DNA of 64,000 nucleotides from Burkholderiales bacterium. Its GTDB lineage: Bacteria > Pseudomonadota > Gammaproteobacteria > Burkholderiales > Usitatibacteraceae. This document shows, one piece after another, positions 31,559 to 62,036 of the stretch. Under the pieces are notes generated by a model that was not told the DNA's origin, ran no database searches, and was given only the letters and a program-made list of their open reading frames with translations. Position numbers and translations under genes: made by a program. The stretch's first letter is position 1; each line of letters starts with the position of its first letter. The DNA is taken from positions 24,734-88,733 of the forward strand of contig JAHCAK010000007.1 of the NCBI GenBank assembly GCA_019634955.1, written 5' to 3'.

Positions 31559-31695
31559 AGGGGGGGGTGAACCTACCCGTTTGGGGGAGCCTGCGCGGAA
31601 CACGAGGCCCGATTTCTCGTAGAATTGTCGTCTGGACAACCATCGACGGCGCCCCCACGGAAGGGGCGCCGCGGTCGATCCGAGGAGAAGCGCAG

Positions 31696-33568: not shown

Positions 33569-34348
33569 TCACCCCCGCGGAGGCTCGCCGCCGGCCTCGT
33601 CCCGGTGCTCGAACCATTCCAGTCGCTCGCGCAGCCGCACGACCTCGCCCACGATGATGAGCGTCGGGGGCTTCAGCCCCGCCTCCCGGGCGCGTTGCGC
33701 GAGCGTGGCGAGGTCCGCGCTCACCACGCGCTGGGCGCTGGTCGTGGCCTGCTGGACCATCGCCGCGGGCGTCCGTGGCGGCAGGCCGTGCGCCACCAGC
33801 TCGCGGCAGAGCTCGTCGAGGTTCTGGAACCCCATGTAGATCACCACCGTCTGGCGCGGCCGCACGATGGCCGCCCAGTCGACGTTCAACTCGCCGTCCT
33901 GGGTGTTGCCGGTCACGAAAACGCAGGATTGCGCGTGGTCGCGGTGCGTGAGCGGGATGCCGGCATAGGCGGCCGCGCCCAGGGCGGCCGTGATCCCGGG
34001 CACGACCTCGAAGCGCACGCCCGAAGCGGAGAGCGTCTCGATCTCCTCGCCGCCGCGGCCGAAGACGAAGGGGTCGCCGGCCTTGAGCCGCAGGACGCGC
34101 CGCCCCATGTGCGCGAGGCTCACGAGCAGCTCGTTGATGGCCTCCTGGCGCATGGCATGGTCGGCGCGCTTCTTGCCGACGTAGATGCGCTCGGCCGCCG
34201 GCGGGACGAGCGCCATGATCTCCTCCGAGACGAGGTTGTCGTAGAGCACGACCTCGGCCTCGCGGATGAGGCGATGCGCCTTCACGGTGAGGAGGTCGGG
34301 GTCGCCGGGGCCGGTGCCGACGAGGAAGACCTCGCCGCGCCCGCTCAC
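33569..34348 (-). CDS. cobA: Uroporphyrinogen-III C-methyltransferase (SUMT)
   Basis: 259 aa with VFLVGTGPGDPDLLTVKA and the other SUMT motifs. The GTG start overlaps the dsrR stop (GTGA), so it is part of the dsr transcription unit and plausibly supplies siroheme precursor for DsrAB. Confidence 0.9.
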   Translation of the reverse strand: MSGRGEVFLVGTGPGDPDLLTVKAHRLIREAEVVLYDNLVSEEIMALVPPAAERIYVGKKRADHAMRQEAINELLVSLAHMGRRVLRLKAGDPFVFGRGGEEIETLSASGVRFEVVPGITAALGAAAYAGIPLTHRDHAQSCVFVTGNTQDGELNVDWAAIVRPRQTVVIYMGFQNLDELCRELVAHGLPPRTPAAMVQQATTSAQRVVSADLATLAQRAREAGLKPPTLIIVGEVVRLRERLEWFEHRDEAGGEPPRG

Positions 34349-34644
34349 GGGGCCCCTGCCTCGCCCGGGCGGGCGAAGATGAAGCGGAAGTCGCCGGGCT
34401 CGATCTCGACGAAATCGAGCGTGACGCCTTCCACCAGGCCGCGGCTGGGGGCCGCGACCACGACCTGGATGCCCTCGACGTCGGCCAGCGTGTCACCCGG
34501 CCGCGACTGGTCGAAGCCCATGCCGAAATCGACGGCGCCGTCGGCGCCCTGCTTCGCGGCCACGCGCAGCACGGGAGGCGCCACGCCGGCATCGGCGGCG
34601 GACTGGCGGATGCGCTCGGCCGCCGCCTGCGTGATGGTGATCAT
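34345..34644 (-). CDS. dsrR: IscA/HesB-like protein DsrR (lacks the Fe-S ligand cysteines)
   Basis: 99 aa: MITITQAAAERIRQSAADAG...LDFVEIEPGDFRFIF. It has the A-type carrier fold signature without Cys and lies after dsrN, as in Allochromatium. Confidence 0.8.
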   Translation of the reverse strand: MITITQAAAERIRQSAADAGVAPPVLRVAAKQGADGAVDFGMGFDQSRPGDTLADVEGIQVVVAAPSRGLVEGVTLDFVEIEPGDFRFIFARPGEAGAP

Positions 34645-34680
34645 CGAACCCTTCCTTTTCCCCGGCCTTCGGCCGGCCTG

Positions 34681-36075
34681 TCAGCTTGCCACGGCGGGCG
34701 CCGCGCCGGCGCGAGCCGCCTTCACCCGCGCCACGTGGCCCACGAAGCGCCGGACCCAGTCGTTGCCCCCGGCATTGCGCTGGTGCGAGTACTGCGCGAG
34801 GACGTTGCGGTGGACGATGCCGTCTCGCCGACCGTCTGTGCCCTCGCCGCGCTCGACCCGCCAGGCGTAGGCGAGCGCCGGGTCGGCGTTGGCGAGCGTG
34901 GAGTGATGAAACTCGTGCGCCTTGACGATGGCGCCCTCCCCCGACCCCCAGGGGTGCGCCGCGGTCTCGGCCAGCCGCACGTAGCCCTTGCCCACGGGCT
35001 TGGCGTGCATGACGACGTCGGCCGGAAGCGCCCCGACCATCTCCCAGGTGCGGCCGCGCCACGAGATCGTCCGGGCGAGGTACATGAGGCCGCCGCACTC
35101 CGCGTAGACGGGAAGCCCGGACGCGATTCGCCGGCGCAGGCTGTCCCGGAGATCCCGGTTGGCCTCCAGTTCCGCGCAGAGCACCTCGGGGAAGCCGCCC
35201 CCGATCAGAAGGCCGTCCGCCTCGGGGATGTCGGCGTCGGCCAGCGCGTCGAAGGCGACCAGCTCGGCGCCGGCCTCGCGAAAGGCGTCGACGTCATCGG
35301 CGTAATAGAAGCCGAAGGCGCGGTCGCGCGCGACCGCGATGCGGACCGTCGGCGCCGGCGCGGCCGCGGGCGCCGGCGGCGCCGCAACCGCCGTGGCGGA
35401 GACGGCGATCGACATCACCCGGTCGAGGTCGACGCCCGCGCAGACGGCCTCGCGCATGGCCGCGACGCGCGCAGCCGCGTCGCCGACCTCGCCCGCCGGC
35501 ACGAGCCCCAGGTGCCGCTCGACGACGCCCAGCCGCGGGTCCTCGCCGATCGCGCCGAGGACGGGAACGCGCGTGTAGCGCTCGATCGCCGCGCGCAGCT
35601 TCGACTCGTGCCGGGCGCCGGCCACGCGGTTGAGTATCACGCCCTCGATGCGCACGAGGGGGTCGAAGGTCGCGAGGCCATGCAGGAGTGCCGCCACCCC
35701 GCGGGCCATCCCGCGTGCGTTGAGCACGAGGACCACGGGAAGGCCCAGCTTCCTCGCGAGCGCGGCGTTGCTGTCGGCGCCCTCGAGATCCATGCCGTCG
35801 TGCAGGCCGAGGTTGCCCTCCACCACGGCGACGTCGCAGCCCCCCGCGTGCCGCGCCCAATGGGCCGAGACCTCGGCGTCGCCCTGCAGGTACGGGTCGA
35901 GGTTGCGGCAGGGGCGGCCCGCGGCGAGGCCCAGCCACTGCGGGTCGATGTAGTCGGGCCCCTTCTTGAAGGGCTGCACCGCGAGCCCGCGCGCCGCGAG
36001 GCCCGCGATGAGGCCGGTGGCGACCGTCGTCTTTCCCGACGAGCGCCACGCGGCGGAGACGAGAAACCCGCTCAT
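34681..36075 (-). CDS. dsrN: Cobyrinate a,c-diamide synthase-like siroheme amidase DsrN
   Basis: 464 aa with a CobB/CbiA N-terminal ATPase (VSAAWRSSGKTTVATGLIAGL) and a glutamine amidotransferase C-terminal domain (YAECGGLMYL). Confidence 0.9.
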   Translation of the reverse strand: MSGFLVSAAWRSSGKTTVATGLIAGLAARGLAVQPFKKGPDYIDPQWLGLAAGRPCRNLDPYLQGDAEVSAHWARHAGGCDVAVVEGNLGLHDGMDLEGADSNAALARKLGLPVVLVLNARGMARGVAALLHGLATFDPLVRIEGVILNRVAGARHESKLRAAIERYTRVPVLGAIGEDPRLGVVERHLGLVPAGEVGDAAARVAAMREAVCAGVDLDRVMSIAVSATAVAAPPAPAAAPAPTVRIAVARDRAFGFYYADDVDAFREAGAELVAFDALADADIPEADGLLIGGGFPEVLCAELEANRDLRDSLRRRIASGLPVYAECGGLMYLARTISWRGRTWEMVGALPADVVMHAKPVGKGYVRLAETAAHPWGSGEGAIVKAHEFHHSTLANADPALAYAWRVERGEGTDGRRDGIVHRNVLAQYSHQRNAGGNDWVRRFVGHVARVKAARAGAAPAVAS

Positions 36076-36096
36076 CGGCGCTTCGCCCTCGGGGGA

Positions 36097-37281
36097 CTAC
36101 TTCGCCGCCGCGACCGCGACCGTGTCGGGCGGGAGGACGGGAAGCGCGCGTGCGCCGGCCAGCGCGATCACGAAGGCTGCGGCGATCCCGCCCAGCCCCA
36201 GCAGGAACTCCGGCAGGCTGGGCGCGTAGCCGTCCACCTGGCCGTCGTGGAAGGCGCTCGCCACCTCGTACCCCGGGAAGATCTCGAGCGGGAAGGCCTG
36301 GCCGCCGATGATGAACACGTAGAGGAACGCGAGCGCCCCGAGCGAGACGAGCAGCGAGGCCGCCGCGGTGGCCCGCGGGCCCGCGAAGCCCGGGTGCAGC
36401 AGTAGCACCAGCGGCACGGCGCTGCCCGCCACGACGAAACCGCCCCAGAAAAGCGCGGGGTACGGCGCGCCGGTGACGAGGATGAAGCGCTCGAACGCGG
36501 CCTGTTTCGCCCAGTAGAGGTTCGTCAGGTGGTGCACGGCGACGAAGTACAGCGCGGCGATGACGAAGATCGCGAGGAGCCGGCGCACGCGCGCGTGGAG
36601 TTCCGCGTCCATCGGCTCGCGGCCGGCCAGCCGGGCGAGGCCGCACTGGGCGAGGTGGAACGCGGCGAGCCCCCACGCGAGCGAGAGCGCGATGAAGAGC
36701 GGCGCGATGACGCCGGAGGCGTAGGCCTGCCGCGCCACGAGGAAGCCGAAGATCGAGCCCGTCCCGGTGGTGAGGATGATGCGCCAGGCGAACGCGGCGA
36801 GGCCCACCGGCTTCGCGTATCCCCCGAGGCGGCGCTCGAGGAGCGCCCACAGGTACAGCGCACAGATCGCGAAGAGCCCGTTGTAGAGGATCATGTTCCA
36901 CGCGAAGATCGAGCGGAAGTTGTAGTGCGTGGCCGCCACCACCAGCCGCTCGGGGCGGCCGAGGTCGAGCACCAGCACCATGAGCCCGCCCGCGAGCAGC
37001 GCCACCGTGAGCAGCACGGACAGGGGCGAGTGCGGCTTGTAGGCCGCCTCGCCGAACACCGAGCCGATCGAGGCGACGTTGAGCGCCCCGGAGGCCGCCA
37101 CGATCAGGAATATCGCGAACACGTGCGGCAGGCCCCAGACGACCTGGTTGTTCATGCCGGTGACGGCGTGGCCGTGCACCTCCATGTAGTGGGCCGCGCC
37201 CAGCGCCACGGCGACCAGCGCGCCGCCGGCGGCGAGGAGCGCCCAGAAGGCGCGGCGGGAGGATGCGCTCGTCGGTTCCAT
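36097..37281 (-). CDS. dsrP: NrfD/PsrC-type integral membrane protein DsrP
   Basis: Lies inside track ORF 36097..37848. The ATG at 37281 gives MEPTSASSRRAFWALLAAGG. It has about 10 TM helices and lies directly after dsrO. Confidence 0.9.
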   Translation of the reverse strand: MEPTSASSRRAFWALLAAGGALVAVALGAAHYMEVHGHAVTGMNNQVVWGLPHVFAIFLIVAASGALNVASIGSVFGEAAYKPHSPLSVLLTVALLAGGLMVLVLDLGRPERLVVAATHYNFRSIFAWNMILYNGLFAICALYLWALLERRLGGYAKPVGLAAFAWRIILTTGTGSIFGFLVARQAYASGVIAPLFIALSLAWGLAAFHLAQCGLARLAGREPMDAELHARVRRLLAIFVIAALYFVAVHHLTNLYWAKQAAFERFILVTGAPYPALFWGGFVVAGSAVPLVLLLHPGFAGPRATAAASLLVSLGALAFLYVFIIGGQAFPLEIFPGYEVASAFHDGQVDGYAPSLPEFLLGLGGIAAAFVIALAGARALPVLPPDTVAVAAAK

Positions 37282-37283
37282 CG

Positions 37284-38015
37284 CTAGAGCCCCTGGTAGC
37301 GCACGCCGTTGTCGGTGCGCAGGTCGGCGCGCAGCTGCGTCGTCGTGGCGGCGCGCACTCGCTTCGAGATCTCGCTCGCCGGGTCGTTCAGGTCGCCGAA
37401 GACGATGGCGCCGTGCCCCGCCGCCGCGCAGGCCTCGACGCACGAGGGCGTGCCGCCGCGGTCGACCTTGTGCACGCACAGCGTGCAGCTTTCCACGCAG
37501 CCCTTGCCGCGCGGCACGTCGGGCTTCTGGCCCGTGGTGGGCTCGTGCACGAAGCTCCTCGCCTTGTACGGGCAGGCCATCATGCAGTAGCGGCAGCCGA
37601 TGCAGGTATGGCGGTCGACGAGGACGATCCCGTCCTCGCGCTTGAAGGAGGCGCCGGTGGGGCAGACGTCCACGCAAGGCGGCTCCGCGCAGTGCTGGCA
37701 CATCACGGGCAGCGACACCGCCTTCCCGGACTTGAGGTCCTTCAAGTCCACTTTGCGGATCCACTGCGAGTCCGTGGGCCGCGTGGAGCCGGGCAGCCCG
37801 TTCTCGCGGTTGCAGGCGTCCACGCACTCGCGGCAGCCGCTCGCGCACTTCGTGGTGTCGATGAGCATGCCCCAGCGGACCTTTCCGCTCACGGGCTCCG
37901 CTCCCTGCTTCGCGTGGGCGTAGTCGTAGAGGATAACGCCCGGGGCGATCATGGCGCCCGCGGCGACCGCGGCCTTGCCGAGGAAGTCGCGCCGGCGCTG
38001 GTCGACGGGGTTCAT
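37284..38015 (-). CDS. dsrO: Periplasmic (Tat) 4Fe-4S ferredoxin-like protein DsrO
   Basis: Lies inside track ORF 37284..38297. The ATG at 38015 gives MNPVDQRRRDFLGKAAVAAGAM, a twin-arginine signal. It has several CxxCxxCxxxC clusters and overlaps dsrJ by ATGA. Confidence 0.9.
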   Translation of the reverse strand: MNPVDQRRRDFLGKAAVAAGAMIAPGVILYDYAHAKQGAEPVSGKVRWGMLIDTTKCASGCRECVDACNRENGLPGSTRPTDSQWIRKVDLKDLKSGKAVSLPVMCQHCAEPPCVDVCPTGASFKREDGIVLVDRHTCIGCRYCMMACPYKARSFVHEPTTGQKPDVPRGKGCVESCTLCVHKVDRGGTPSCVEACAAAGHGAIVFGDLNDPASEISKRVRAATTTQLRADLRTDNGVRYQGL

Positions 38016-38416
38016 CGCGCGCCTCCGGTGGCAGGCGCCGCCGCCGTCGCCGCCGGACGCGCGGTCGAGGCGTGGCAGTCGAAGCAGTCGACCTTCACGG
38101 CCGCGTAGTCGTGGCAGCCCTGGCAGAAGTGCCGCTCGGAGCCCAGCACGCGCCCGTCCGCCCTGCTCGCGTGGCAGTCCACGCAGGCCGCGAGGCTGTG
38201 GCGGATGCCGCGGATGCCCTTGCGGACGGTGTCGTCGCGGCCGTGCTTGAGGAAGTCCGGGTGCGAGCGGCGCATGAGCTTCGGGTCCTCGACGCACGGG
38301 CCGGCGCGCGCGGCGTCCAGCGCCGGGCCCGAGGCGTGCGCGAGCGGCCCCGCGGCGCTCCCCGCGAGGAGGAGCGCGGCCGCGGCCGCCGCGCGGAGGA
38401 TGCCTGCCACGGTCAT
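38012..38416 (-). CDS. dsrJ: Triheme cytochrome c DsrJ
   Basis: 134 aa with a signal peptide and three CxxCH motifs (CVDCH, CQGCH, CFDCH). Confidence 0.9.
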   Translation of the reverse strand: MTVAGILRAAAAAALLLAGSAAGPLAHASGPALDAARAGPCVEDPKLMRRSHPDFLKHGRDDTVRKGIRGIRHSLAACVDCHASRADGRVLGSERHFCQGCHDYAAVKVDCFDCHASTARPAATAAAPATGGAR

Positions 38417-38426
38417 GCGCGCCTCC

Positions 38427-40376
38427 CTACTCCCCCAGCCCCATCTGGATGTAGCCGGTGGGGCAGACGTCGCGGCAGATGTGGCAGCCGATGCACTTGT
38501 CGTAGTCGGTGTCGACGTAGCGCCCGGTCGTGCTCTGGTTCTTCTTTACCTTGAAGACCGCCGTCTGCGGGCAGTAGACCACGCAGTTGTCGCACTCGAA
38601 GCACAGGCCGCAGCTCATGCAGCGCTTGGCCTCCTCGATCGCCTGCTTCTCGTCGAGCGCGCCGAGGCGCTCCTCGAAGTTGCCGAGCGCGGTCTCCTTG
38701 GTGAGCGTGATGAAATTGCGCTTCACGCGCGGCGTGAAGCCGAAGTGCCCGAGGAAGAGCTCCTTGTGGGTGATGATGTGGCGGTCGGAGCGGTTGTCGT
38801 AGTTGTGCACGGCGGCCTTGGAGTCGCAGGTGCCCCACATGGGCTCCTTCGCCTCCTCGACCGAGAGCCCCTTCTCGTGCATCTTGCGCACCAGGTCGAA
38901 CTGGTGCACGTCGATCTTCGGGCGCTTCTCGAGGTCCTCGCCGCGCAGGAACCGGTCGATGCCCTCCGCGGCGATGGAGCCGTGGCCGATGGCGGTCGTG
39001 AGCAGGTGCGGGCGGATCACGTCGCCGCCGGCGAACACGCCATCCTTGCCCGCCACGCGGTAGTTGCGGTCGGCGGCGACCGCGCCCTTTCCGTTGTCGA
39101 ACTCCTCGAGGCCCGTGAAGTCGACCGACTGGCCGATGGCCGACACGATGAGGTCGGCCGGGATGTCCTGCTCGGTGCCCGGCTTCATGTCGATCTGCAG
39201 CCGCCCGCCCACGAACTTCGCCTCGCACTGCGCCACGCGCAGGGCCGTGGCGCGCCCGTCGGCGCCCTTCACGATGCCCACGGGAGCCCAGCCGCCGCGG
39301 ATGTCGATGCCCTCGGCCGCGGCCTGCTCGATCTCGTGCTTGTTGGCCTGCATCTTGTCCACGCCGAACACGGAGGTGAGCGTCACCTCGGCGCCCTGCG
39401 CGACCGACACGTGCGCCACGTCGTGCGCCATGTAGCCGGCGATCGCCTGCTCGAAGTCGGTGGGCTTCGCGTTCTCGATGTGGCCGAGGCGCCGCGCGAC
39501 CGTCGCCACGTCGATGGAGGTGTCGCCGCCGCCGACCACGACGACGCGCTTGCCGACGTGGCGCAGGCGCCCGTCGTTGAAGGCCTTCAGGAACGCCGTC
39601 GCCGTCACCACGTTGGGCGCCTGCGAGTCGGCGACCGGCAGCGGCCTGCCGCCCTGCGCGCCCATGCCGAGGAAGACCGCGTCGAAGTCCTTGCGGATCT
39701 GCTCCATGGTGATGTCCGTGCCGACGCGGCACTTGAGGCGCGCCTCGACGCCCAGGTCGAGGATGCGCTGGATCTCGGCGTCGAGGATGTCGCGGGGCGT
39801 TCGAAAGCCCGGGATGCCGTAGCGCATCATGCCGCCGAGGTGCTCGTGGTCGTCGAAGATCGTGACCGCGTGGCCCTTGAGCGCGAGCTGGTAGGCGCAC
39901 GAAAGGCCCGCGGGCCCGCCGCCCAGGATGGCCACCTTCTTGCCCGTGGACTTCTCCGCCTTGCGGTAGGCGAGCTTGTTCGCGGTGGCGTAGTCGCCGA
40001 GGAAGTGCTCGACGGAGTTGATGCCGACGTGATCCTCGACCTCGTTGCGGTTGCAGCCCGTCTCGCAGGGCGCCGGGCAGACGCGGCCCATCACCGACGG
40101 GAACGGGTTCGCCTCGGTGAGGCGGCGCCAGGCGTACTCCTGCCAGGGCATGCCCTGCGGGGGCTTCTCCGTCTGGCGCACGACCTGCAGCCAGCCGCGG
40201 ATGTCCTCGCCCGACGGGCAGCTGCCCTGGCACGGCGGCGTGGACTGGATGTAGGTCGGGCACTTGTGCGACCACGACGCCTGGAAGATCTGGTCCTGCC
40301 AGCGCACGGGCTTCGCGTCGCCGTCCTTGTAGCGCCGGAAGGTGAGGGCTTGGGTTTCCTGGGGGTTGGCGGCCAC
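38427..40376 (-). CDS. dsrL: NAD(P)H:acceptor oxidoreductase DsrL (GltD-like, FeS + FAD)
   Basis: 649 aa with an N-terminal FeS Cys cluster, two dinucleotide folds (KKVAILGGGPAGLSCAY, KRVVVVGGGDTSIDV) and a C-terminal 2x[4Fe-4S] ferredoxin domain (CMSCGLCFECDNC...CIGCHICRDVCP). Confidence 0.9.
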   Translation of the reverse strand: MAANPQETQALTFRRYKDGDAKPVRWQDQIFQASWSHKCPTYIQSTPPCQGSCPSGEDIRGWLQVVRQTEKPPQGMPWQEYAWRRLTEANPFPSVMGRVCPAPCETGCNRNEVEDHVGINSVEHFLGDYATANKLAYRKAEKSTGKKVAILGGGPAGLSCAYQLALKGHAVTIFDDHEHLGGMMRYGIPGFRTPRDILDAEIQRILDLGVEARLKCRVGTDITMEQIRKDFDAVFLGMGAQGGRPLPVADSQAPNVVTATAFLKAFNDGRLRHVGKRVVVVGGGDTSIDVATVARRLGHIENAKPTDFEQAIAGYMAHDVAHVSVAQGAEVTLTSVFGVDKMQANKHEIEQAAAEGIDIRGGWAPVGIVKGADGRATALRVAQCEAKFVGGRLQIDMKPGTEQDIPADLIVSAIGQSVDFTGLEEFDNGKGAVAADRNYRVAGKDGVFAGGDVIRPHLLTTAIGHGSIAAEGIDRFLRGEDLEKRPKIDVHQFDLVRKMHEKGLSVEEAKEPMWGTCDSKAAVHNYDNRSDRHIITHKELFLGHFGFTPRVKRNFITLTKETALGNFEERLGALDEKQAIEEAKRCMSCGLCFECDNCVVYCPQTAVFKVKKNQSTTGRYVDTDYDKCIGCHICRDVCPTGYIQMGLGE

Positions 40377-40416
40377 GGTGTCCTCCGTATCGTTGTCGTG
40401 TGGGTGCGGGGCGCGG

Positions 40417-41943
40417 CTACTGCTTCGCCCCGAGCCGGATGGCGGTGCTCACGAGCTGGTGGACGCCGCCCACCATGCTCCGGTTGAATCCGTAATAGGG
40501 CAGGACCTTGGTGAACTGCGCCTTGCAGATGGCGCAGATGGTCGCCATGAAGTTGACGCCGTGGCGGTCCGCCACCTCGCGCAGCGACTCCATCCTCGGC
40601 AAGGCGCCCTTGACGCGCAGGTCGAGCAGCTCGTCGGTGAGCAGCCCCCCGCCCCCGCCGCAGCAGAAGGTCGCCTCGTGGGTCGTGCCGGGGCGCATCT
40701 CGACGTACCTGTTGGCCACCGCCCTCACCAGCGCCCGCGGGATCTCGAACTGGCCGCCCGGGTCGTCGCCCATGCGCGAGGCGCGCGCGACGTTGCAGGA
40801 GTCGTGGAAGGTGACGACGCGGTGGTCGTTCGCCTCCTTGTCGAGGACCAGGGCGCCCTTCTGCACGAGGTCCCAGGTGAGCTCGCAGATGTGCGTGGGC
40901 TGGCGGTAGCGGTGGTCCAGCTGGCTCTGGAGCATGCGGGCGAACGGGTCGTCCGCGCCGGAGCCGATGCCCGCGAGCGTGTTCCAGAAGCTGTAGGCCA
41001 CGCGCCACGCGTGCCCGCACTCGCCGACCACGATGCGCTTCACGCCCAGGTCGAGCGCGGCCTCGCGGATGCGCATCGCGATGGCGCGCATCTGCTCGTA
41101 GTTGCCGATGAAGAGCCCGAAGTTGCCGGCCTCGGAGGCGTGCGAGGAGAGCGTCCAGGAGATGCCGGCGGCGTGGAACACCTTGGCGTAGCCGATGAGG
41201 CTGTCGACGTGCGGCTCGGCGAAGAAGTCGGCCGAGGGCGTGATGAGAAGCACCTCCGCGCCCTTCACGTCGAGGGGGAACTTCACGTCGGCGCCGGTCT
41301 CCTCCTTCGTGTCCTCCTCCAGGCCCAGGAGCGTGTCCTCGAGCGCCGGGCCCGGGAGCCCCAGGTTGTTGCCGATCTTGTGGACCTTGCCGATGATCTC
41401 GTTCGTGTACTTCTGGCCGTAGCCCACGCTGTCCAGGATCTCCTTGGCGGCCATGGTCACCTCGGCCGTGTCGATCCCGTAGGGGCAGAAGACGGAGCAG
41501 CGGCGGCACTCGGAGCACTGGTTGTAGTACTTGTACCAGTCGTCGAGGACGTCCCTCGTCAGCTCGCGCGCGCCCACGAGCTTCGGGAAGAGCTTGCCGG
41601 GCAGCGTGAAGTGGCGGCGGTACACCCCGCGCATCAGCTCCTGGCGGGCCACGGGCATGTTCTTGGGGTCGCCCGTGCCGAGGAAGTAGTGGCACTTGTC
41701 CGTGCAGGCGCCGCAGTGCACGCAGGCGTCGAGGTAGACGCGCAGGCTGCGGTACTTGCCCACGAGTTCCCCCATCTTGGAGATGGCCTTGTCGTGCCAG
41801 TCGTCGACGAGCTTGCCGGGGAAGCCGATGGCCTCCTGCATCTTTTCCGTCGCCACGTACGGCTGCGAGGCCGCCATCGCGTCCGGCTGGATCGCGGGCG
41901 GGACGGGGAACTCCCGGAGCGGCGGGGCGGTGACGTCGGCCAT
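40417..41943 (-). CDS. dsrK: HdrD-like FeS/CCG-domain protein DsrK
   Basis: 508 aa with ferredoxin motifs (CVHCGACTDKC, CSECRRCSVFCP) and CCG-domain cysteines (FCCGGGGG). Confidence 0.95.
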   Translation of the reverse strand: MADVTAPPLREFPVPPAIQPDAMAASQPYVATEKMQEAIGFPGKLVDDWHDKAISKMGELVGKYRSLRVYLDACVHCGACTDKCHYFLGTGDPKNMPVARQELMRGVYRRHFTLPGKLFPKLVGARELTRDVLDDWYKYYNQCSECRRCSVFCPYGIDTAEVTMAAKEILDSVGYGQKYTNEIIGKVHKIGNNLGLPGPALEDTLLGLEEDTKEETGADVKFPLDVKGAEVLLITPSADFFAEPHVDSLIGYAKVFHAAGISWTLSSHASEAGNFGLFIGNYEQMRAIAMRIREAALDLGVKRIVVGECGHAWRVAYSFWNTLAGIGSGADDPFARMLQSQLDHRYRQPTHICELTWDLVQKGALVLDKEANDHRVVTFHDSCNVARASRMGDDPGGQFEIPRALVRAVANRYVEMRPGTTHEATFCCGGGGGLLTDELLDLRVKGALPRMESLREVADRHGVNFMATICAICKAQFTKVLPYYGFNRSMVGGVHQLVSTAIRLGAKQ

Positions 41944-41949
41944 GGCTGC

Positions 41950-42672
41950 CTACTTGGAGTCCAGCCGCGCCGCCCACTCGGCCAGGTGCCGGCGCTCGCG
42001 CGGGTCGTCGGCCTGGTTGCGGCCGGGGCTGAAGAAGAGCCCGGGGGCGTGCAGCAGCTTGGAGAAGGGGAAGACGAGCATCAGCGCCGCGACCAGCCCC
42101 AGGTGCACGGCGAGGAGCGGGTCGGCGGGCAGGCTGCGCACCTCGAAGCGCATGAGGCCGAGGAAGAACGCCTTCACGGCCACCACGTCGGTGTGCGCGA
42201 CGTACTTCATGGCGAGCCCGGAGAGCGCGATCGCGACGAGCAGCGCCAGCATCAGGTGGTCCGAGGGCGTCGAGATGTAGCGGACGCGGTCGACGAGGAA
42301 GCGCCGGGCCCACAGGCCCGCGAGCCCCGCCACCATCGCGAACCCGGCATACACGCCGAAGGGCTGCGCGAACGCGACCCACGACCACACGGGCTCGGTG
42401 AAGTAGCGCAGGTGCCGCACCAGGACGAGGGCGAGCGCCGCGTGGAACACCCAGCCGAAGAGCCAGGTCCACAGCGTCGCCTTGAACAGGCTCTCGAAGA
42501 GCACCACCTCCCGCACGAGGCGCAGCGCCACGCCGCCCTTCGTCGTCGGCGCGGGCGTGGTCGGGATCTTCAGCGGCGCGGGCGTGCCGGCGTACTGGCG
42601 GATGCGCACCGCGAGCCCCGCCACCAGGACGGCGGCGGCGAGGTAGAAGAGCCCGGCGAAAATGGTGGCCAT
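41950..42672 (-). CDS. dsrM: NarI-like diheme b membrane protein DsrM
   Basis: 240 aa with 5 TM helices and conserved His residues. It lies directly upstream of dsrK. Confidence 0.9.
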   Translation of the reverse strand: MATIFAGLFYLAAAVLVAGLAVRIRQYAGTPAPLKIPTTPAPTTKGGVALRLVREVVLFESLFKATLWTWLFGWVFHAALALVLVRHLRYFTEPVWSWVAFAQPFGVYAGFAMVAGLAGLWARRFLVDRVRYISTPSDHLMLALLVAIALSGLAMKYVAHTDVVAVKAFFLGLMRFEVRSLPADPLLAVHLGLVAALMLVFPFSKLLHAPGLFFSPGRNQADDPRERRHLAEWAARLDSK

Positions 42673-42718
42673 GGCGGCGGAGCCAGGCGCGGCTTGACCC
42701 CGCGCCCGGCCGGCGGCG

Positions 42719-43054
42719 TCAGACGCAGCCCGTGGGCTTCGGCAGGCCGGCGATCTTGCACGCCTGCTTGGCGGGGCCGTAGGGGAAGAGCTCGTACAGG
42801 TACTGGTTGCTGCCCTTCTCCGGCCCCAGCTTCTTGCCGATGGCCTTCGTGAGCACGCGCACGGCCGGCGCGATCTGGTACTCGTTGTAGTACTCCCGCA
42901 GGAAGTTCACGACCTCCCAGTGGTTGTCGCTCATCTCGATCTTCTCGGCCTTGGCGATCTCGCCGGCGAGCTCCTCGTTCCAGTCGGCGAGGTTCACCAG
43001 GTAGCCTTCCTCGTCGACTTCATAGGTCTTGCCGCCCGCATCGATGGTGCCCAT
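42719..43054 (-). CDS. dsrC: Sulfur-carrier protein DsrC
   Basis: 111 aa ending in CKIAGLPKPTGCV, which carries both conserved cysteines (CysB-X10-CysA). Confidence 0.95.
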   Translation of the reverse strand: MGTIDAGGKTYEVDEEGYLVNLADWNEELAGEIAKAEKIEMSDNHWEVVNFLREYYNEYQIAPAVRVLTKAIGKKLGPEKGSNQYLYELFPYGPAKQACKIAGLPKPTGCV

Positions 43055-43116
43055 TCGTTTCTCCTTTACGTTTCGGGTTTCGCGTTGTCGCTCCGGCTGG
43101 TGGGCCGTGTTCCGCG

Positions 43117-43419
43117 CTACAGCCAGGACTGCACGCGGGGGTTCTGGGTGACCAGGTCGACGAAGCCGCGGTAGTCGACCTGCACGATGCCTTCGGCCAC
43201 GGCGCCGGCGCGCGCGCGCGCCTCGAGGTCGGGCCTGAGCACGAAGAGCTTCACGCCCGCGCCGATGGCCCGGCCCACCGCCCCGGCGGCGGCGTGGCCC
43301 TTCGTGGCGGCGTAGACGGCGTCCTCGATGAGGAGCACCGAGTGGCCCGGGCGGGCGTGCGCGAGGCAGCTCGCGAGGGTGGAGCGCTCGCCGGGGGACT
43401 TGTTGACGATGTGCAGCAT
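43117..43419 (-). CDS. dsrH: Sulfurtransferase complex subunit DsrH (TusB-like)
   Basis: 100 aa: MLHIVNKSP...LLIEDAVYAA, the DsrH/TusB signature. It lies after dsrF. Confidence 0.9.
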   Translation of the reverse strand: MLHIVNKSPGERSTLASCLAHARPGHSVLLIEDAVYAATKGHAAAGAVGRAIGAGVKLFVLRPDLEARARAGAVAEGIVQVDYRGFVDLVTQNPRVQSWL

Positions 43420-43439
43420 GGCGTCGGTCTCTCTCGTTC

Positions 43440-43814
43440 TCAGAAGCTGATCATCACGTCCATCTCGTCCATGAGCGCGGCCATCCCGGCCGCGTCAAGG
43501 ACCGTCACGTCCACGAGGAGGTCGTCCTCCGTGAGGCCGCGCGCCTCGAGCGACTCGCGCTCGACGTAGAGCTTCTCGATGTCGTAGCCCTCGAGCGCCC
43601 GGTAGGTGGGCGAGAAATTCTTGGCCTCGATCGCCTTGGTGTTCTGCCCCTTGGCGAGCTGGTAGACCCCGTCGTCCAGGAAGGCGAGCCCCACGTCCTG
43701 GTCGAAGGCGGCGCTGATGAGCACCACCTCCAGGCCCTCCAGCGCGTAGACGCTGCCGTAGGGGGCCTTGCGGTTCACGAAGAGGAACTTCTTGACGGTG
43801 CCGGTCGCTTCCAT
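43440..43814 (-). CDS. dsrF: Sulfurtransferase complex subunit DsrF (TusC-like)
   Basis: 124 aa: KKFLFVNRKAPYGSVYALEGLEVVLISAAFDQDV..., the DsrF/TusC family pattern. Confidence 0.9.
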   Translation of the reverse strand: MEATGTVKKFLFVNRKAPYGSVYALEGLEVVLISAAFDQDVGLAFLDDGVYQLAKGQNTKAIEAKNFSPTYRALEGYDIEKLYVERESLEARGLTEDDLLVDVTVLDAAGMAALMDEMDVMISF

Positions 43815-43818
43815 TTCC

Positions 43819-44178
43819 CTAGTCCCCGAAGACGACGAGGCGGTCGGACTGGATGGCCGACTCCACGAGCTGCCCGAGCCCCGAGATGCGGAAGCCCTGC
43901 GCGAGGTTCTGCTCGACGATGCCGCGGCGCAGCGCCGCGGCCACGCACACCACGAGGTCCACGCCGTGCTCCTCGGCGAGCTTGGCCCAGCGCGCCACGA
44001 CGTTCCTGTCGTCCTGCGGCGGCTCGGTGAGCTTGGTCGCGTTGTTGACCCCGTCGTGGTAGAAGAACACGCGCTCGATCTGGTGGCCGGCCTCGATCGC
44101 CGCCCTGCAGAAGAGGTAGGCGCTGTCGCTCGACTGGTGCTGGTACGGCCCCTCGTTCACCATCACTCCGATCTTCAC
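43819..44178 (-). CDS. dsrE: Sulfurtransferase complex subunit DsrE (TusD-like)
   Basis: Tail of track ORF 43819..45132. The GTG at 44178, after GGGAG, gives VKIGVMVNEGPYQHQSSDSAYLFCRAAIEAGH...VVCVAAALRRGI (active-site Cys)...ISGLGQLVESAIQSDRLVVFGD. Confidence 0.9.
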   Translation of the reverse strand: MKIGVMVNEGPYQHQSSDSAYLFCRAAIEAGHQIERVFFYHDGVNNATKLTEPPQDDRNVVARWAKLAEEHGVDLVVCVAAALRRGIVEQNLAQGFRISGLGQLVESAIQSDRLVVFGD

Positions 44179-44213
44179 TTCGTCGTCGCTCCCTTGGCTT
44201 TTCCCGCGGCCCG

Positions 44214-45296
44214 CTAGAAGCGGATGTGCGCCGAGGCGTTGAGGTTCGAGCGCGAGCCGCGCCAGTCGTCGATGAGGTACTTCGTGAACGGCAGGCCCGT
44301 CTTCTCGAAGAAGCGCGGCCAGCCGATGCGCTCGACCCAGTCCGAAAGCCGCTCCCAGGGGCGGGCGTCGGCCTTGTAGGTGTAGAGGATCTTCTTCACG
44401 ATCTCCGACACCTCGGGCCAGCGCGGCGGGTTGTTGGGGATGCCGGAGGCCACCATCTTCATGAAGGTGGGCTTGCCGCGGGCGTTCGAGTTCTTGCCGC
44501 CCACCCAGATCGCGAACTTGGAGTGCTCGGGGTCGTTGATCTGCATCGGCGGGCACGGCGGGTAGCACGCGCCGCAGCAGATGCACTTCTTCTCGTCGAC
44601 CTCCAGCGAGGGCTTGCCGTTCACCAGCGCCGGCCGGATGGCCGCCACCGGGCAGCGCGCGACGACGGCCGGGCGCTCGCAGACGTTGGCCACCAGGTCG
44701 TGGTTGATCTTGGGCGGCTTGGTGTGCTGGATGATGATGGCGATGTCGGCCTGGCCGCCGCAGTTGATCTCGCAGCAGGAGGTCGACAGGTGCACGCGGT
44801 TGGGCATCTCCTCCTTGACGAACTCCTCGTGCAGGTCGTCCATCAGGGCCTTCACGGCGCCGCTGGCGTCGGTGCCCGGGATGTCGCAGTGCAGCCAGCC
44901 CTGGGTGTGGGCGATCATCGTCACCGAGTTGCCGGTGCCGCCCACGGGGAAGCCGTTGCGGGTGAGCTCCTCGATGAGCGGGGCGACCTTCTTCTCGTCG
45001 GACACCATGAACTCGATGTTCGAGCGGATGGTGAAGCGCACGTGCCCTTCCGCGTACTTGTCGGCGATGTCGCAGAGCTTCCGGATCGTGTAGACGTCCA
45101 TCTGGCGCTGCGTACCGGCGCGCACGCTCCACACCTCGTCGCCGGTGTGGGAGACGTGGTGCAGGACGCCCGGCCGCGGCCGGTCGTGGTACTTCCAGTT
45201 GCCGTAGTTCTTCGCGAGCTTCGGGTGCAGGAAGGGCTTGTTGTCGGGCACGCCCGACTCGATCGCGCGGCGCGGGGTGGCGGTAGCGGTGGCCAT
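44214..45296 (-). CDS. dsrB: Reverse-type dissimilatory sulfite reductase beta subunit
   Basis: 360 aa with siroheme/FeS Cys motifs and a ferredoxin insert (CICCGACYPPCP). It lies directly after dsrA. Confidence 0.97.
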   Translation of the reverse strand: MATATATPRRAIESGVPDNKPFLHPKLAKNYGNWKYHDRPRPGVLHHVSHTGDEVWSVRAGTQRQMDVYTIRKLCDIADKYAEGHVRFTIRSNIEFMVSDEKKVAPLIEELTRNGFPVGGTGNSVTMIAHTQGWLHCDIPGTDASGAVKALMDDLHEEFVKEEMPNRVHLSTSCCEINCGGQADIAIIIQHTKPPKINHDLVANVCERPAVVARCPVAAIRPALVNGKPSLEVDEKKCICCGACYPPCPPMQINDPEHSKFAIWVGGKNSNARGKPTFMKMVASGIPNNPPRWPEVSEIVKKILYTYKADARPWERLSDWVERIGWPRFFEKTGLPFTKYLIDDWRGSRSNLNASAHIRF

Positions 45297-45344
45297 GTCA
45301 GTTGCTCCGGATTCTGATTGCGGCGGGTTCGGGGGGGCGCGGGC

Positions 45345-46640
45345 TCAGGCGGCCTTCTGCTTCGCCTTGATCTTCGCGACCTCGTCGTCCCACCCGTCGG
45401 TGCGGACGTACGGGTTCATGCGCGGCGAGGAGACCATGTTGGGGTCGACCTCGAGGCCCACGCCCTCCAGGAAGTTCACCAGGCCGATGCGCTCGATCGT
45501 CTCGCCGATGCGCTCGTGCTCCAGCGCGTTCTCGGCGAAGAAGTCGACGATGCGCTTGCCGAGGTCCACGAGCTGCTCGCGGTCCTCGTCCGTCTCGAGC
45601 TTCATGAAGGGCACGACCACGGTGCCCATGAGGTCGCCGATCTTGAGCGTGCGCTTGCCGCCCACCAGGATGGTGGCGCCCTTGTCCTTGCCCGGGGCCA
45701 GCGCGCCGGTCATCACGTTGATGCAGTGCATGCAGCGCACGCAGTCGCGGTTCTCGATGCACAGGGCCTTGTCGTCGGAGACCTTCACCGTCGAGAGCGT
45801 GGGGCCCGACGGGATCTTCGCCGCGTCGACCAGCTGGATCGCCTTGGTGGGGCAGCGGCTCACGACGTCGTTCACGAGGTCGTTCAGGCCGTGCTTGGCG
45901 AAGTACTTGCGGGCCAGCGCCTCGTCGGTGCGGATGTTGTCGCGCCAGGTGCCGATCACGGCCATGTCCGAGCGCTGGATCGCGTTCATGCAGTCGTTCG
46001 GGCAGCCCGAGAACTTGAACTTGAACTTGTAGGGCAGCGACGGGCGGTGGATGTCGTCGGTGAAGTTGTTGAGCACGGTGCGGTGCGCGCTCGCCTCGTC
46101 GTAGCACGACTGCTCGCAGCGCGCGGCGCCCACGCAGGACATGGAGGTGCGCACGGCGGGGCCCGCGCCGCCCAGGTCGAAGCCCAGCTCGTTGATCTCG
46201 TCGAACGCGTCCTGGACCTTGTCGGAGCGGGCGCCCTGGAACATGATGTCGCCGCTCTGGCCGTGGAAGGCGATGAGGCCGGAGCCGTGGCGCTCCCAGG
46301 TGTCGCAGAGCTTCCTCAGGATGTCGGTGCTGTAGTGCATGCCCGGGGGCGGCATGACGCGCAGGGTGTGGAATTCGGCCGCGTCCGGGAACCGGGGCTT
46401 GCCCGACTCGTCCTTGAGCTCGGTGAAGCGCGGGATGATGCCGCCGCCGTACCCGAACACGCTCACGGTGCCGCCCTTCCAGTAGCCCTTCTTCGTGTTG
46501 TACGACGTCTCCAGCTGGCCGAGCAGGTCGACCATCATGTCGTTGTCCTTGGCCAGGCGCTTGAGCCCCGTCACGAAGCTCGGCCAGGGGCCGCTCTCCA
46601 GCGCGTCGAGCATGGGCGTCTCGTGCATTTTCTTAGCCAT
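45345..46640 (-). CDS. dsrA: Reverse-type dissimilatory sulfite reductase alpha subunit
   Basis: 431 aa: MAKKMHETPMLDALESGPWPSFVTGLKRLA... with a ferredoxin insert (CVRCMHCINV). Linkage to dsrEFH and dsrL is typical of oxidative (rDsr) systems. Confidence 0.97.
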   Translation of the reverse strand: MAKKMHETPMLDALESGPWPSFVTGLKRLAKDNDMMVDLLGQLETSYNTKKGYWKGGTVSVFGYGGGIIPRFTELKDESGKPRFPDAAEFHTLRVMPPPGMHYSTDILRKLCDTWERHGSGLIAFHGQSGDIMFQGARSDKVQDAFDEINELGFDLGGAGPAVRTSMSCVGAARCEQSCYDEASAHRTVLNNFTDDIHRPSLPYKFKFKFSGCPNDCMNAIQRSDMAVIGTWRDNIRTDEALARKYFAKHGLNDLVNDVVSRCPTKAIQLVDAAKIPSGPTLSTVKVSDDKALCIENRDCVRCMHCINVMTGALAPGKDKGATILVGGKRTLKIGDLMGTVVVPFMKLETDEDREQLVDLGKRIVDFFAENALEHERIGETIERIGLVNFLEGVGLEVDPNMVSSPRMNPYVRTDGWDDEVAKIKAKQKAA

Positions 46641-46906
46641 AGCGGCCTCCTCGCGTGTCGTTCGTCGTCGGGTCGTCCGGGAGGGAGCCCCTTCCCAGGG
46701 TCGACCGATCCTACGGTGCCCCCCGGGGCTCCGCCATCCCTCTGTCGGTGATCGGCGATCTCCGATGGGGTGGGTGGGAACTACCCGTTTGGGTTATGCC
46801 GCGCGTCCTTCGCCCGGGGGGTAGACGGCGGGGTCGTGGGGCGGCGTAAAGTAGCCCCTCGCGGCGTGGCGGTATTGGCGCCGCCTTCCTCCCGCCTACG
46901 CCGACC

Positions 46907-51218: not shown

Positions 51219-51689
51219 TCAGACGAACAGGCAGATGTCGGTGCTGCCGGCGAATTCGAAGAAGGTCGAGGCGCCGCCGTACTCGACGCCGTCGATGAAG
51301 TCCTCGCGCTTGAAGTCGAAGAGGTCGACGGTCATTTCGCAGCCGATGAACTTGACGCCGGATTCCTGGCAGGCCGTGCGCAGGTCCTCGATGGAGGCCA
51401 CGCCCTTCGACTTGATCTTCTGCTTCATCATCATCGTGGCCATCGACTCCATGCCCGGCAGCGCCGAGACGAGCACCGGCATCGGCACGGGCATCGGCAT
51501 GGCGGGGTTGGCCAGCGGGCTGATCTTCACGCCCGAGAGGTCCTTCCTCAGGAGCGTGAGGCCGTAGAAGGTGAAGAAGATCTGCACCTCGTAGTCGAGG
51601 GCCGCCGCGGTCGAGGCGAGGATGAAGGGCGGGTACGCCATGTCCAGCGTGCCCTTGGTGGCGATGATCGCCAGCTTCTTCCGGCTCAT
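51219..51689 (-). CDS. DsrE2-type (DsrE/DsrF-like family) sulfur-relay protein
   Basis: 156 aa: KKLAIIATKGTLDMAYPPFILASTAAALDYEVQIFFTFYG...VKFIGCEMT (conserved Cys). It lies downstream of tusA, as in tusA-dsrE2 modules. Confidence 0.8.
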   Translation of the reverse strand: MSRKKLAIIATKGTLDMAYPPFILASTAAALDYEVQIFFTFYGLTLLRKDLSGVKISPLANPAMPMPVPMPVLVSALPGMESMATMMMKQKIKSKGVASIEDLRTACQESGVKFIGCEMTVDLFDFKREDFIDGVEYGGASTFFEFAGSTDICLFV

Positions 51690-51699
51690 GGGGGCCGCC

Positions 51700-51927
51700 T
51701 CACTTCTTCTTCAGGAAGAAAACGTACTCCTTGCCTTCCGGCTGGGACGAGAGCAGCTCGTTGCCGGTCTGCTTGGCGAACGCCTCCATGTCCTTCACGC
51801 TGCCGGCGTCCGTCGAGATCACCTTGAGCACCTGGCCCGCGGCGAGCTCGCCCAGGGCCTTCTTCGTCTTGAGGATCGGCAGCGGGCAGTTGAGGCCGCG
51901 GGCGTCCAGTTCCTTGTCGTGGTTCAT
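51700..51927 (-). CDS. tusA: Sulfurtransferase TusA
   Basis: Lies inside track ORF 51700..52011. The ATG at 51927 gives MNHDKELDARGLNCPLPILKTKKALGELAAGQVLKVISTD, the canonical CPxP TusA. It is 75 aa. Confidence 0.9.
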   Translation of the reverse strand: MNHDKELDARGLNCPLPILKTKKALGELAAGQVLKVISTDAGSVKDMEAFAKQTGNELLSSQPEGKEYVFFLKKK

Positions 51928-52182
51928 GCTTCGTTCTCCTTGGCGGCTGTCGTCCGGGAGGATGCGCGCGCACGCACGCCCATGCCCGCCCGGGCATTCG
52001 GGAACCGCCATTTCGCGGCCCGGGCGTCCCAGTGGCTATACCCCGTGTAGGGTAATTCCGCCTCCCCCACATGGGTAATGACCAATATCAACCACCGCTA
52101 ATATGCTTCGGGACGAAAGTCCTACGCTACACTGGCCCCGGCGCCCCTTTCCGGGGGCGCGCGGGCAACCGCGGGAGGCACC

Positions 52183-58022: not shown

Positions 58023-58964
58023 TCAGGTCCAGATCCCGAGCCCCTTCAGCAGCGCCCGCAGCCCCGCGAAGGCGAGCAGCCCGAGCACGAGCTTGCGCAC
58101 CGTGGCAGCGGGCAGCACCTTCAGCAGCTTCGCGCCGATCTTGGCGCCCAGCATCATGCCGATCACCGAGGGCACCGCGATCATCGGAAGCACCGCGCCC
58201 TGGTTGAGGTAGACCCACGCCGCGGAGCTGTCGACGAGGGAGAGGATGAAGCTCGACGTGCCCGCCGAGACCTTGAGGGGCGCGCCCATGAGGAGGTTCA
58301 GCGCCGGCAGGTTCGCCCAGCCCGCCCCCAGGCCGAACATGCCGGCGAGGATGCCGATGCCGAAGAAGATCACGAGGCCGGCGGGCGTGCGGTGGACCTG
58401 CCAGGAAACCTGGCGCCCGGTGGCCGGATCGACGAGCACGCCGTTCATGCCGAGCGCGGCCGAGATGGCGTCGGGCTTCGCGACCTCCGGGAATTCCGAG
58501 CGCTTCGCGACCGCCATCAGGACGACGATCGCGAGGATGGTCGCGCCGAGCGCCACCTGCACCGCGTTGGTCGGCAGCGCGAAGCCGATCATCGCGCCGA
58601 GGATCGAGCTCGCGGAGGCCACCAGCGCGAGCGGGAGCGCCAGGCGCAGGCTCGCGAGGCCCGACTGCAGGAGGGCCGGCCCCGCCGAGAGCGCGCTCGC
58701 GAGCGCGACCAGCAGCCCGGCGCCGCGGACGAAGTCGAGGTGGAACGGGAAGAACCCGCCCACGATCGGCACGAACAGCACGCCGCCGCCCACGCCAGCG
58801 GGCACGGCGACGATGCCGAGGAAGAAGCAGACGACGAAGAGCGCGAGGGGCCAGCCCCACCAGGGCATCGCCGACGGGGCCGGCGCCTGGGCGGCGGCCG
58901 CCCAGGCTTCCGGGGCGAGCGCGAGCGCGGCGCCCGTCGCGGCGAGCAGGGCCAGGCGCCTCAT
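58023..58964 (-). CDS. TauE/SafE family anion (sulfite-type) exporter/permease
   Basis: C-terminal 313 aa of track ORF 58023..61967. The ATG at 58964 overlaps the soeA stop (ATGA). It has two internal repeats with the GVGGGVLFVP and GLGAGWANLPAL motifs and about 8 TM helices. Confidence 0.85.
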   Translation of the reverse strand: MRRLALLAATGAALALAPEAWAAAAQAPAPSAMPWWGWPLALFVVCFFLGIVAVPAGVGGGVLFVPIVGGFFPFHLDFVRGAGLLVALASALSAGPALLQSGLASLRLALPLALVASASSILGAMIGFALPTNAVQVALGATILAIVVLMAVAKRSEFPEVAKPDAISAALGMNGVLVDPATGRQVSWQVHRTPAGLVIFFGIGILAGMFGLGAGWANLPALNLLMGAPLKVSAGTSSFILSLVDSSAAWVYLNQGAVLPMIAVPSVIGMMLGAKIGAKLLKVLPAATVRKLVLGLLAFAGLRALLKGLGIWT

Positions 58965-61861: not shown

Positions 61862-62036
61862 GGGTTGCCCGTTCGTTCGCGTCCCGACGGGGACGCTCGA
61901 CGTGCGCGTGCAGCCCGGCCCTGGGGACCACCCGATTTCGAGGCAACCCGGACGGGAAGTCCATCACTCAGAAGGGGTATTGGCTCCCCATCGGAGTGAT
62001 TGACCGGCGCGGGGGCCCCGCGCGGGGCTCGGGATG

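Follow-up and report, generated by a model that had tools for sequence, protein, structure and literature searches.

What does a short word signify that stands twice, letter for letter, in front of two sulfur-oxidation operons? The 64,000-nt stretch of DNA considered here in its full length (the window, 71% GC) encodes a DsrL protein that is 99% identical to one from a Usitatibacteraceae metagenome-assembled genome, and it carries the 13-mer CTACCCGTTTGGG upstream of dsrA and again upstream of a soeB-like gene. A first-pass annotation of the window had judged a chance match improbable and had proposed either a shared operator or a conserved 5' untranslated region (UTR) element of an undescribed sulfur-oxidation regulon, with a NarL-type regulator encoded beside one copy. 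On the evidence below, drawn from sequence comparison, the 13-mer is probably the core of a quasi-palindromic operator upstream of sigma-70-type promoters of dsr, soeA, soeBC-sat and tusA-dsrE2, at which the adjacent NarL-type regulator would activate transcription.

Both copies were located by a search of the window at 31573-31585 and 46781-46793 of the + strand, and no further copy was found in the 64 kb with up to two mismatches allowed. The former lies 119-131 nt upstream of the soeB-like gene and the latter 141-153 nt upstream of the dsrA ATG. Each occupies a divergent intergenic region, between the GAF-kinase gene and soeB and between the DUF6967 gene and dsrA, so that coordinates, distances and placement are as first reported. 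Since dsrA and soeB are both on the minus strand, the two copies are equally oriented relative to their gene, and the gene-sense reading of both is CCCAAACGGGTAG (-153 to -141 at dsrA, -131 to -119 at soeB). Outside the 13-mer, pairwise alignment of the two intergenic regions shows little extended similarity, and thus the copies do not derive from a recent duplication. The earlier estimate of how improbable a chance match would be was optimistic. In a first-order Markov simulation, an exact 13-mer common to both regions arises with P = 0.007 on the same strand and P = 0.012 on either strand; 11 of 306 strand-wise comparisons of non-genic window segments have words of at least 13 nt in common, and the whole window holds 877 direct 13-mer pairs. 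Taken alone, the match is weak evidence, barely beyond chance and only suggestive. The claim that it is not a chance event still holds, on account of its conservation across genomes.

For this comparison, 80 betaproteobacterial dsr loci were fetched through DsrL with 10-kb flanks (L002-L081, at most 22 kb each), and four extra loci were reached through homologues of the regulator (L082-L085). The pattern CCC-N4-GGGTAG, with at most one mismatch, is present in 51 of the 57 dsrA upstream regions, mostly in the same orientation, in genomes that range from Usitatibacter-like ones to Thiobacillus and Hydrogenophilus. The flanking T and A, which stood outside the search pattern, are kept in 47 of these 51 sites. 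The resulting consensus, aTA(A/C)CCC-N4-GGGTAg(t), is a quasi-palindrome of two TACCC-like half-sites facing each other. It becomes a perfect palindrome, CTACCC-N4-GGGTAG, in L062, L064 and L066, is found in flipped orientation (Gallionellaceae, L078), and is absent from the dsrA region of L081, the sole alphaproteobacterial locus. The flanks of the dsrA upstream regions have diverged and their GC content spreads from 33% to 75%, and therefore these regions are not recently transferred copies of one sequence.

A 20-nt matrix, built from the dsrA upstream sites of other genomes only, scores the dsrA copy of the window at 31.0 bits and the soeB copy at 16.3 bits, where simulation expects 0.015 hits of at least 16 bits per window. 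At a threshold of 14 bits, three matches were observed against 0.065 expected, at dsrA, soeB and soeA. The soeA match (61962-61981, 14.1 bits) lies about 100 nt upstream of the soeA-like gene, and a further one (52061-80, 8.6 bits) lies upstream of tusA-dsrE2. Across the 80 loci, matches of at least 13 bits fall almost only in dsrA upstream regions and in the intergenic regions between the kinase gene and soeA or sat (L005, L025, L026, L027, L035, L038, L041, L043, L044 and L080). At least 13 other genomes have the element next to the kinase/regulator pair, in front of soeA or sat. Among the extra loci, L082 (17.8 bits) and L085 (16.5 bits) each carry a perfect palindrome, L083 reaches 15.5 bits, and L084 stays below 10 bits by the matrix, its site ATCCCCCATCCGGGGTATC being visible by eye. 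In L083 and L085 the soeA motif is kept where soeABC-sat adjoins the kinase/regulator pair and no dsr genes are adjacent. Phylogenetic footprinting of orthologous dsrA, soeA and sat upstream regions hence bears out the proposal of a shared operator of a sulfur-oxidation regulon. The origin of the word in a dispersed repeat or a mobile-element end was rejected, given two exact copies per 64 kb and matrix matches confined to sulfur-gene promoters over the 84 loci.

The element is positioned relative to promoters. In the 46 loci with a located promoter, the centre of the primary site is quantised at -64 to -69 (25 loci) or -88 to -93 (19 loci) from the predicted transcription start site (TSS), whereas distances to the dsrA ATG (5' UTR length) span 20-183 nt. 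A fixed promoter distance with a variable ATG distance means that the position of the element follows the promoter, in increments of roughly two helical turns, and not the coding sequence or the 5' UTR. In L026 and L080 an ATG follows the predicted -10 box by 6-9 nt, so near that the box is sensible only as part of a promoter with a leaderless or nearly leaderless mRNA. In the four promoters of the window (Table 1), the sites are spaced 20-23 bp apart, which is about two helical turns.

Thirteen soeA, soeB, sat and tusA promoters align readily and have one layout in common, with invariant -35 and -10 bases. Site 1, cTTACCCATnTGGGTTA, holds the 13-mer and is followed after about 5 nt by Site 2, TnCCCCGTGnCGGTnA, which runs into the -35 TAGACr; 17-18 nt further stands the -10 nnTAAT, its AAT invariant in all 13. 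The soeB Site 1 aligns with Site 1 of the soeA/sat promoters of 10 other genomes, and with a Site 2/-35 matrix from 10 other genomes soeB reaches 21.1 bits and soeA 12.5 bits. At dsrA, the proximal block TAcCC-N5/6-GGGwGATrGC is conserved in an anchored comparison of 42 loci, and 46 loci have an ATrG followed at 15-19 nt by a conserved TAnnAT. The middle dsrA site, 22-23 bp from both of its neighbours, is put forward with low confidence. Many loci keep a block equivalent to the extra upstream site of the dsrA/DUF6967 region, cTATAGCCgggacGGGtgg, which lies some 28 nt further upstream than the primary site, and the extra site itself may serve the divergent DUF6967 promoter. A simple promoter scan of both intergenic regions returned no sigma-70 consensus match. 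A terminator-like call at 46768-46786 (GGGTGGGTGGGAACTACCC + GTTTGGGTTA) from the simple promoter/terminator scan was discounted: the T-run on which it relies is part of the call only because it is the motif, and elsewhere the element occurs with no such stem.

Repeats of other kinds are also found around these promoters. Upstream of soeB, the 11-nt direct repeat CTATTACCGCA (gene sense TGCGGTAATAG) occurs at 31520-31530 and 31549-31559 (+), 29 bp apart; one copy forms the right half of Site 2 into the -35, and the other holds the predicted -10 GGTAAT. The predicted dsrA leader (46641-46700, -) contains a GC-rich inverted repeat, GGGAAGGGGCTCCCTCCC.

A structured RNA, either as a 5'-UTR element or as a hairpin substrate, is the reading that these data do not support. 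In an alignment of 47 primary sites, with two hairpin registers considered, no pair was changed on both sides; the GGGTA arm is essentially invariant and the other arm varies without compensation, although the pattern-based selection of the sites limits what covariation could be visible within CCC/GGG. Folding of 48-nt windows around both copies on both strands gave z = 0.68, -1.22, 0.93 and 0.28 against shuffles, that is, no excess stability, and the whole window has no Rfam match at gathering thresholds. The sites lie upstream of the predicted -35. Both the hairpin and the suggestion of a 5'-UTR element were accordingly set aside.

The candidate binder is a two-component pair whose genes at 31696-33552 are as first described, according to Pfam and profile matches. 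The kinase appears to be cytoplasmic, with no apparent transmembrane segment. Its single GAF domain carries a cysteine triad, CGxCG...C (residues ~85-120 of the kinase), conserved in 22 orthologues, and this triad may mark a sensor of the thiol, Fe-S or sulfane-sulfur type that answers a redox or sulfur-species cue. Against NarQ, only the HisKA_3/HATPase part (residues 160-394) matches, the N-terminus being a GAF and not a NarX/NarQ-type sensor. The regulator scores 212.6 bits with the NarL equivalog NF007935, below the curated cut-off of 250 bits, and matches Escherichia coli NarL (PDB 1A04) with E = 3e-46, its helix reading TVKLHVRH where NarL has TVKVHVKH. The helix, ISH(D/N)TVKLHVRHI, is near-invariant in 28 orthologues of 53-77% overall identity, which parallels the invariance of the GGGTA half-site. 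In NarL the base-contacting residues are K188, V189 and K192 (PMC10853779); their counterparts here, K, L and R, are conserved or conservatively replaced. With its TACCC-like half-sites, the NarL-type reading first proposed thus gains support from the protein side as well. In 28 of the 80 DsrL-fetched loci the pair lies where the dsr operon ends, with soeA, soeB or sat on its other side. The search for regulator homologues returned only close, mostly metagenomic proteins. In L071 (Thiobacillus denitrificans RG), the ~50-nt ggactccgatccactacgcactgaagtgcgtgtggagtcgtatgccc stands in tandem repeat just upstream of the kinase gene (~20440-20540).

In the mechanism that we propose, the GAF histidine kinase would phosphorylate the neighbouring NarL/FixJ-family regulator. 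Dimers of the regulator would occupy the strong distal site and, by cooperative binding, extend to the one next to the -35, there recruiting RNA polymerase and so activating transcription. Activation rather than repression is suggested by sites that lie upstream of or at the -35 together with weak -35 and -10 boxes. We infer which protein binds, whether it activates, what signal it answers and where exactly transcription starts. A precedent is the response regulator BvgA, whose dimers, arranged head to head, occupy DNA at 22-bp intervals; its strong site is the most upstream one, and the site nearest the promoter adjoins the -35 (PMC7250471). The window matches this architecture: the strongest site is furthest upstream, the proximal one abuts a poor -35, and dsrA has one extra site between. 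NarL in turn activates from 7-2-7 sites, at -43.5 in yeaR and at -44.5 plus -77.5 in ogt (PMC10853779). Activation by cooperative phosphorylated dimers is proposed because the layout is like that of BvgA at fha and ptx and resembles that of NarL at ogt and yeaR.

The likeness to these systems has limits. With BvgA at fhaB and ptx, the sites here have in common inverted heptads, steps of ~22 bp on one helical face and a GerE/LuxR helix-turn-helix (HTH), binding here being only predicted; the BvgA half-sites are of the TTTCCTA type (Pfha primary site TAAGAAATTTCCTA) against TACCC here, and the BvgS sensor is periplasmic/PAS, in contrast to a soluble GAF kinase and sulfur-oxidation targets (PMC7250471). 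With the 7-2-7 sites of NarL and NarP (TACYYMT-NN-AKRRGTA; PMC10853779) the likeness lies in inverted TACCC-type heptamers, a site near -44 just upstream of the -35 and a second site further up. The 47 sites do carry inverted TACYYMT-type heptamers: G16-G18 are invariant, T19 and A20 are kept in at least 90%, and in the left half, TA(A/C)(C/T)C, T6 and A7 are invariant. The recognition helix of NarL, K188/V189/H190/V191/K192, corresponds to K/L/H/V/R here. Half-site spacing, a sensor that is not the periplasmic NarX/NarQ type, a score below the equivalog cut-off and a regulon of sulfur oxidation instead of nitrate respiration all place the system outside NarXL; by analogy, it would work like a NarL/FixJ-family activator array.

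Further parallels come from more distant systems. DosS/DosT-DosR (DevSR) of Mycobacterium joins GAF kinases with HisKA_3 to a NarL-family regulator, the kinases having tandem GAF domains with haem and the regulator a 20-bp Dev box. DosR, too, acts at multiple phased sites (PMC7018068). The kinase and regulator types are alike, as are several palindromic boxes, cooperative binding (here proposed) and a proximal box overlapping the -35; the single GAF with CGxCG...C differs from the tandem haem GAF of DosS/T, and the Dev box differs in sequence. In sulfur oxidisers, the ArsR-type, sulfane-sulfur-responsive repressors SoxR and sHdrR control sox and sHdr (PMC12423496). They resemble the present case in the dedicated control of sulfur-oxidation clusters through intergenic operators, and differ in protein family, in being repressors, in targets other than Dsr/Soe/Sat and in unrelated operator sequences.

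Several points weigh against activation by the NarL-type regulator. The promoters and TSSs are all predicted from sequence, and the pattern that picked out the sites for the matrix came from the 13-mer of the window itself. Roughly half of the dsr loci with the motif show no kinase/regulator pair in their 10-kb flanks. Where a kinase upstream region is not common to soeA/sat, no site is detectable in it, and so autoregulation is not a general feature; what ties the motif to the regulator is synteny together with half-site resemblance. Unlike the 7-2-7 site of NarL, with its 16-bp TAC...GTA span, most sites here measure 15 bp from TA to TA, those of L062, L064 and L066 14 bp and proximal sites ~14 bp, which brings the half-sites 1-2 bp closer. 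Lastly, synteny with the dsrA copy of the motif is tighter still for the DUF6967 and Cas6-family pair than for the kinase/regulator pair.

An alternative is an operator of the same regulon that is bound by another factor, be it the LysR-family regulator encoded beside sat (27543-28493), DsrC or a protein encoded elsewhere, with the NarL-type pair syntenic for some other reason. LysR-type regulators use a recognition site near -65 and an activation site near -35, and distal and proximal sites at about -65 and -44 would also fit this layout. The LysR orthologue (64% identity) adjoins the soe cluster in L084 and persists as a cut copy beside sat in L085, and the motif-bearing loci whose flanks lack the pair speak for another factor in general. 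However, no such orthologue follows sat in L080 or occurs in the other loci, and the LysR gene of the window converges on sat and diverges from none of the targets. The conserved frame is TA-N11-TA and not a T-N11-A dyad, and the dsrA arrays reach -88 in 22-23 bp steps. For its scarcity and the missing dyad the LysR neighbour was judged an improbable regulator, even though the -65/-44 layout is compatible with this family. As for any other factor, the half-sites resemble those of NarL, and their conservation is paralleled by that of the regulator helix; we consider a different binder unlikely.

Considerably less probable is a domesticated CRISPR-type RNA-binding module controlling dsr, in which the Cas6-family protein and/or DUF6967 would read the palindromes as RNA or single-strand hairpins, or read the crossing transcripts, with or instead of the NarL-type regulator. 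The genes divergent from dsrA span 46907-48286 (+), the third being a double-domain TusA in many loci, and DUF6967 and Cas6-like genes flank dsrA in all but two of the dsrA loci of other genomes; L080 has only the Cas6-like match, and L081 lacks both genes and the motif. The Cas6-like assignment is sound (TIGR02807 at 113.5 against a cut-off of 98.85 bits; PF09559 at 157 bits; Cas6 of PDB 8FCJ_B with E = 5e-11), and the site could form a hairpin of 3-5 bp. The AlphaFold2 model of DUF6967 (pLDDT 87.8) has four strands and a helix and resembles PC4/PUR-alpha single-strand binders with TM ~0.6, but its Foldseek E-values of 0.2-0.5 are not significant. The module is further opposed by the want of compensatory changes, by folding no better than shuffled and by the position of the sites upstream of predicted promoters and in phase with them. 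The soeA copy of the window lies in a co-directional intergenic region, which therefore offers no divergent transcript, and the soeA motif of L083 and L085 is far from dsr and Cas6-like genes. No CRISPR array was noticed beside the DUF6967 and Cas6-like genes, no repeat search having been run. The least credible account is that the two identical 13-mers are a GC-rich coincidence with no function. The 13-nt words and pairs counted above in the window are what such an account can draw on, but a matrix trained on other genomes only recovers both copies, and in dozens of genomes the element recurs at orthologous promoters, at set distances from the promoter; this conservation contradicts the account.

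Table 1. Target operons, predicted promoter elements and neighbouring genes in the window (centres relative to the predicted TSS).
Feature	Position	Strand	Details
dsr cluster, dsrAB...dsrL...dsrN, ends with TP_methylase gene	33569..46640	-	target operon 1
dsrA	45345-46640	-	TIGR02064, 531 bits
soeB-like, soeC-like (DmsC), sat	28471..31454	-	target operon 2
soeB-like Fe-S subunit, then DmsC-like membrane subunit and sat	30723-31454 (soeB)	-	
soeA-like molybdopterin subunit	58961..61861	-	Pfam; target 3, apart from soeBC here
tusA (51700-51927) and dsrE2 (51219-51689)	51219..51927	-	target 4
dsrA primary/distal site, best conserved	46779..46798	-	gene sense CATAACCCAAACGGGTAGTT; holds 13-mer 46781-46793; centre 46789, ~-88
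dsrA weak middle site (tentative, read from sequence)	46755..46772	-	gene sense CCACCCCATCGGAGATCG; centre ~46766, -65
dsrA promoter-proximal site	46734..46753	-	gene sense GATCACCGACAGAGGGATGG; abuts weak -35 TGGCGG; centre 46744, ~-43
Extra upstream site, dsrA/DUF6967 region	46808..46827	-	gene sense GTCTACCCCCCGGGCGAAGG
Predicted dsrA -10 TAGGAT	46708..46713	-	predicted TSS ~46701; 5' UTR ~61 nt
soeB-soeC-sat distal Site 1	31571..31590	-	gene sense GCTCCCCCAAACGGGTAGGT; holds 13-mer 31573-31585; centre 31581, ~-67; 16.3 bits
soeB proximal Site 2 and -35	31545..31567	-	gene sense CCCCCCCCTTGCGGTAATAGACA; -35 TAGACA 31550..31545; centre ~-44
Predicted soeB -10 GGTAAT	31521..31526	-	18 nt from -35; predicted TSS ~31514
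soeA sites	61958..62001	-	Site 2/-35 61958-61980 (ATACCCCTTCTGAGTGATGGACT; centre 61972, -44); Site 1 61982-62001 (centre 61992, -64)
Predicted soeA -35 and -10 CGAAAT	61963..61958; 61940..61935	-	predicted TSS ~61928
tusA-dsrE2 sites	52033..52080	-	Site 2 TACCCCGTGTAGGGTA 52039-52054 (centre -43.5); Site 1 52061-52080 (centre 52070, -67)
Predicted tusA -35 TAGCCA and -10 CGAAAT	52038..52033; 52015..52010	-	predicted TSS ~52003
Histidine kinase, cytoplasmic: one GAF, then HisKA_3 and HATPase_c	31696..32895	+	Pfam; 22-orthologue alignment
NarL/FixJ-family response regulator, REC and GerE/LuxR HTH	32899..33552	+	candidate binder
Small DUF6967 protein, 73 aa	46907-47128	+	divergent from dsrA
Cas6/Cmx6-family protein	47125-47775	+	divergent from dsrA

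For many environmental Betaproteobacteria, among them Thiobacillus, Sulfuritalea, Gallionellaceae, Rubrivivax/Rhodoferax relatives and Usitatibacteraceae, the reverse-Dsr/Soe/Sat pathway is a main way to oxidise sulfur. A search of a literature library found no described regulator or cis-element for the betaproteobacterial Dsr/Soe/Sat genes, and nothing relevant on DUF6967, on Cas6 with dsr, on dsr with LuxR or two-component systems, on a Thiobacillus NarL regulon or on an NreC motif; the regulon had been called undescribed, and no paper on it was found. What the window yields is a testable regulon, with an operator, four target promoters, a candidate two-component system and a candidate cysteine-based sensor domain. 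If true, this would be the first candidate master switch for the pathway and would explain the co-ordination of dsr, soe, sat and tusA-dsrE2. Sulfur-oxidation regulons could then be predicted in metagenomes from a sequence signature, and the NarL/FixJ family would gain a branch that senses sulfur or redox state. The finding makes the regulation of the pathway directly testable; it is not mechanistically surprising.

The arrangement of the target genes varies between genomes. Orthologues of the soeA-like gene, at 73-84% identity, directly precede soeBC in other genomes, and in the relatives L027 and L082-L085 soeABC is contiguous behind a single motif-bearing promoter. In the window, soeA is ~27 kb away from soeB-soeC-sat, and each has a separate motif-bearing promoter. 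At tusA, the longest open reading frame starts at 52011, within the predicted -10 box; the true start is likely the ATG at 51927 (MNHDKELD...), which is preceded by AAGGAG and gives a 76-aa TusA.

Upstream of aprM, the direct repeat TGCACCTTGTTGG / TGCACCTTTTGGGG (22970-23015, +) surrounds a TAGAAT -10-like box ~40-75 nt before the ATG (23047). The word GCACCTTTTGGGG, which had been taken for a weaker relative of the 13-mer, belongs to this different repeat; it scores 1.7 bits and has no TA...TA frame, and it was dropped from the motif. The aprM repeat has no relation to the TACCC/GGGTA motif; another regulator may use it as its operator. Inside a universal-stress-protein (Usp) gene (17646-18089, -) lies a 12.3-bit matrix match, ATCACCCCGTCGGGGTAGTA (17935-17954, +), which is probably a false positive due to chance. 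Usp genes also adjoin the soe cluster in L082 and L085.

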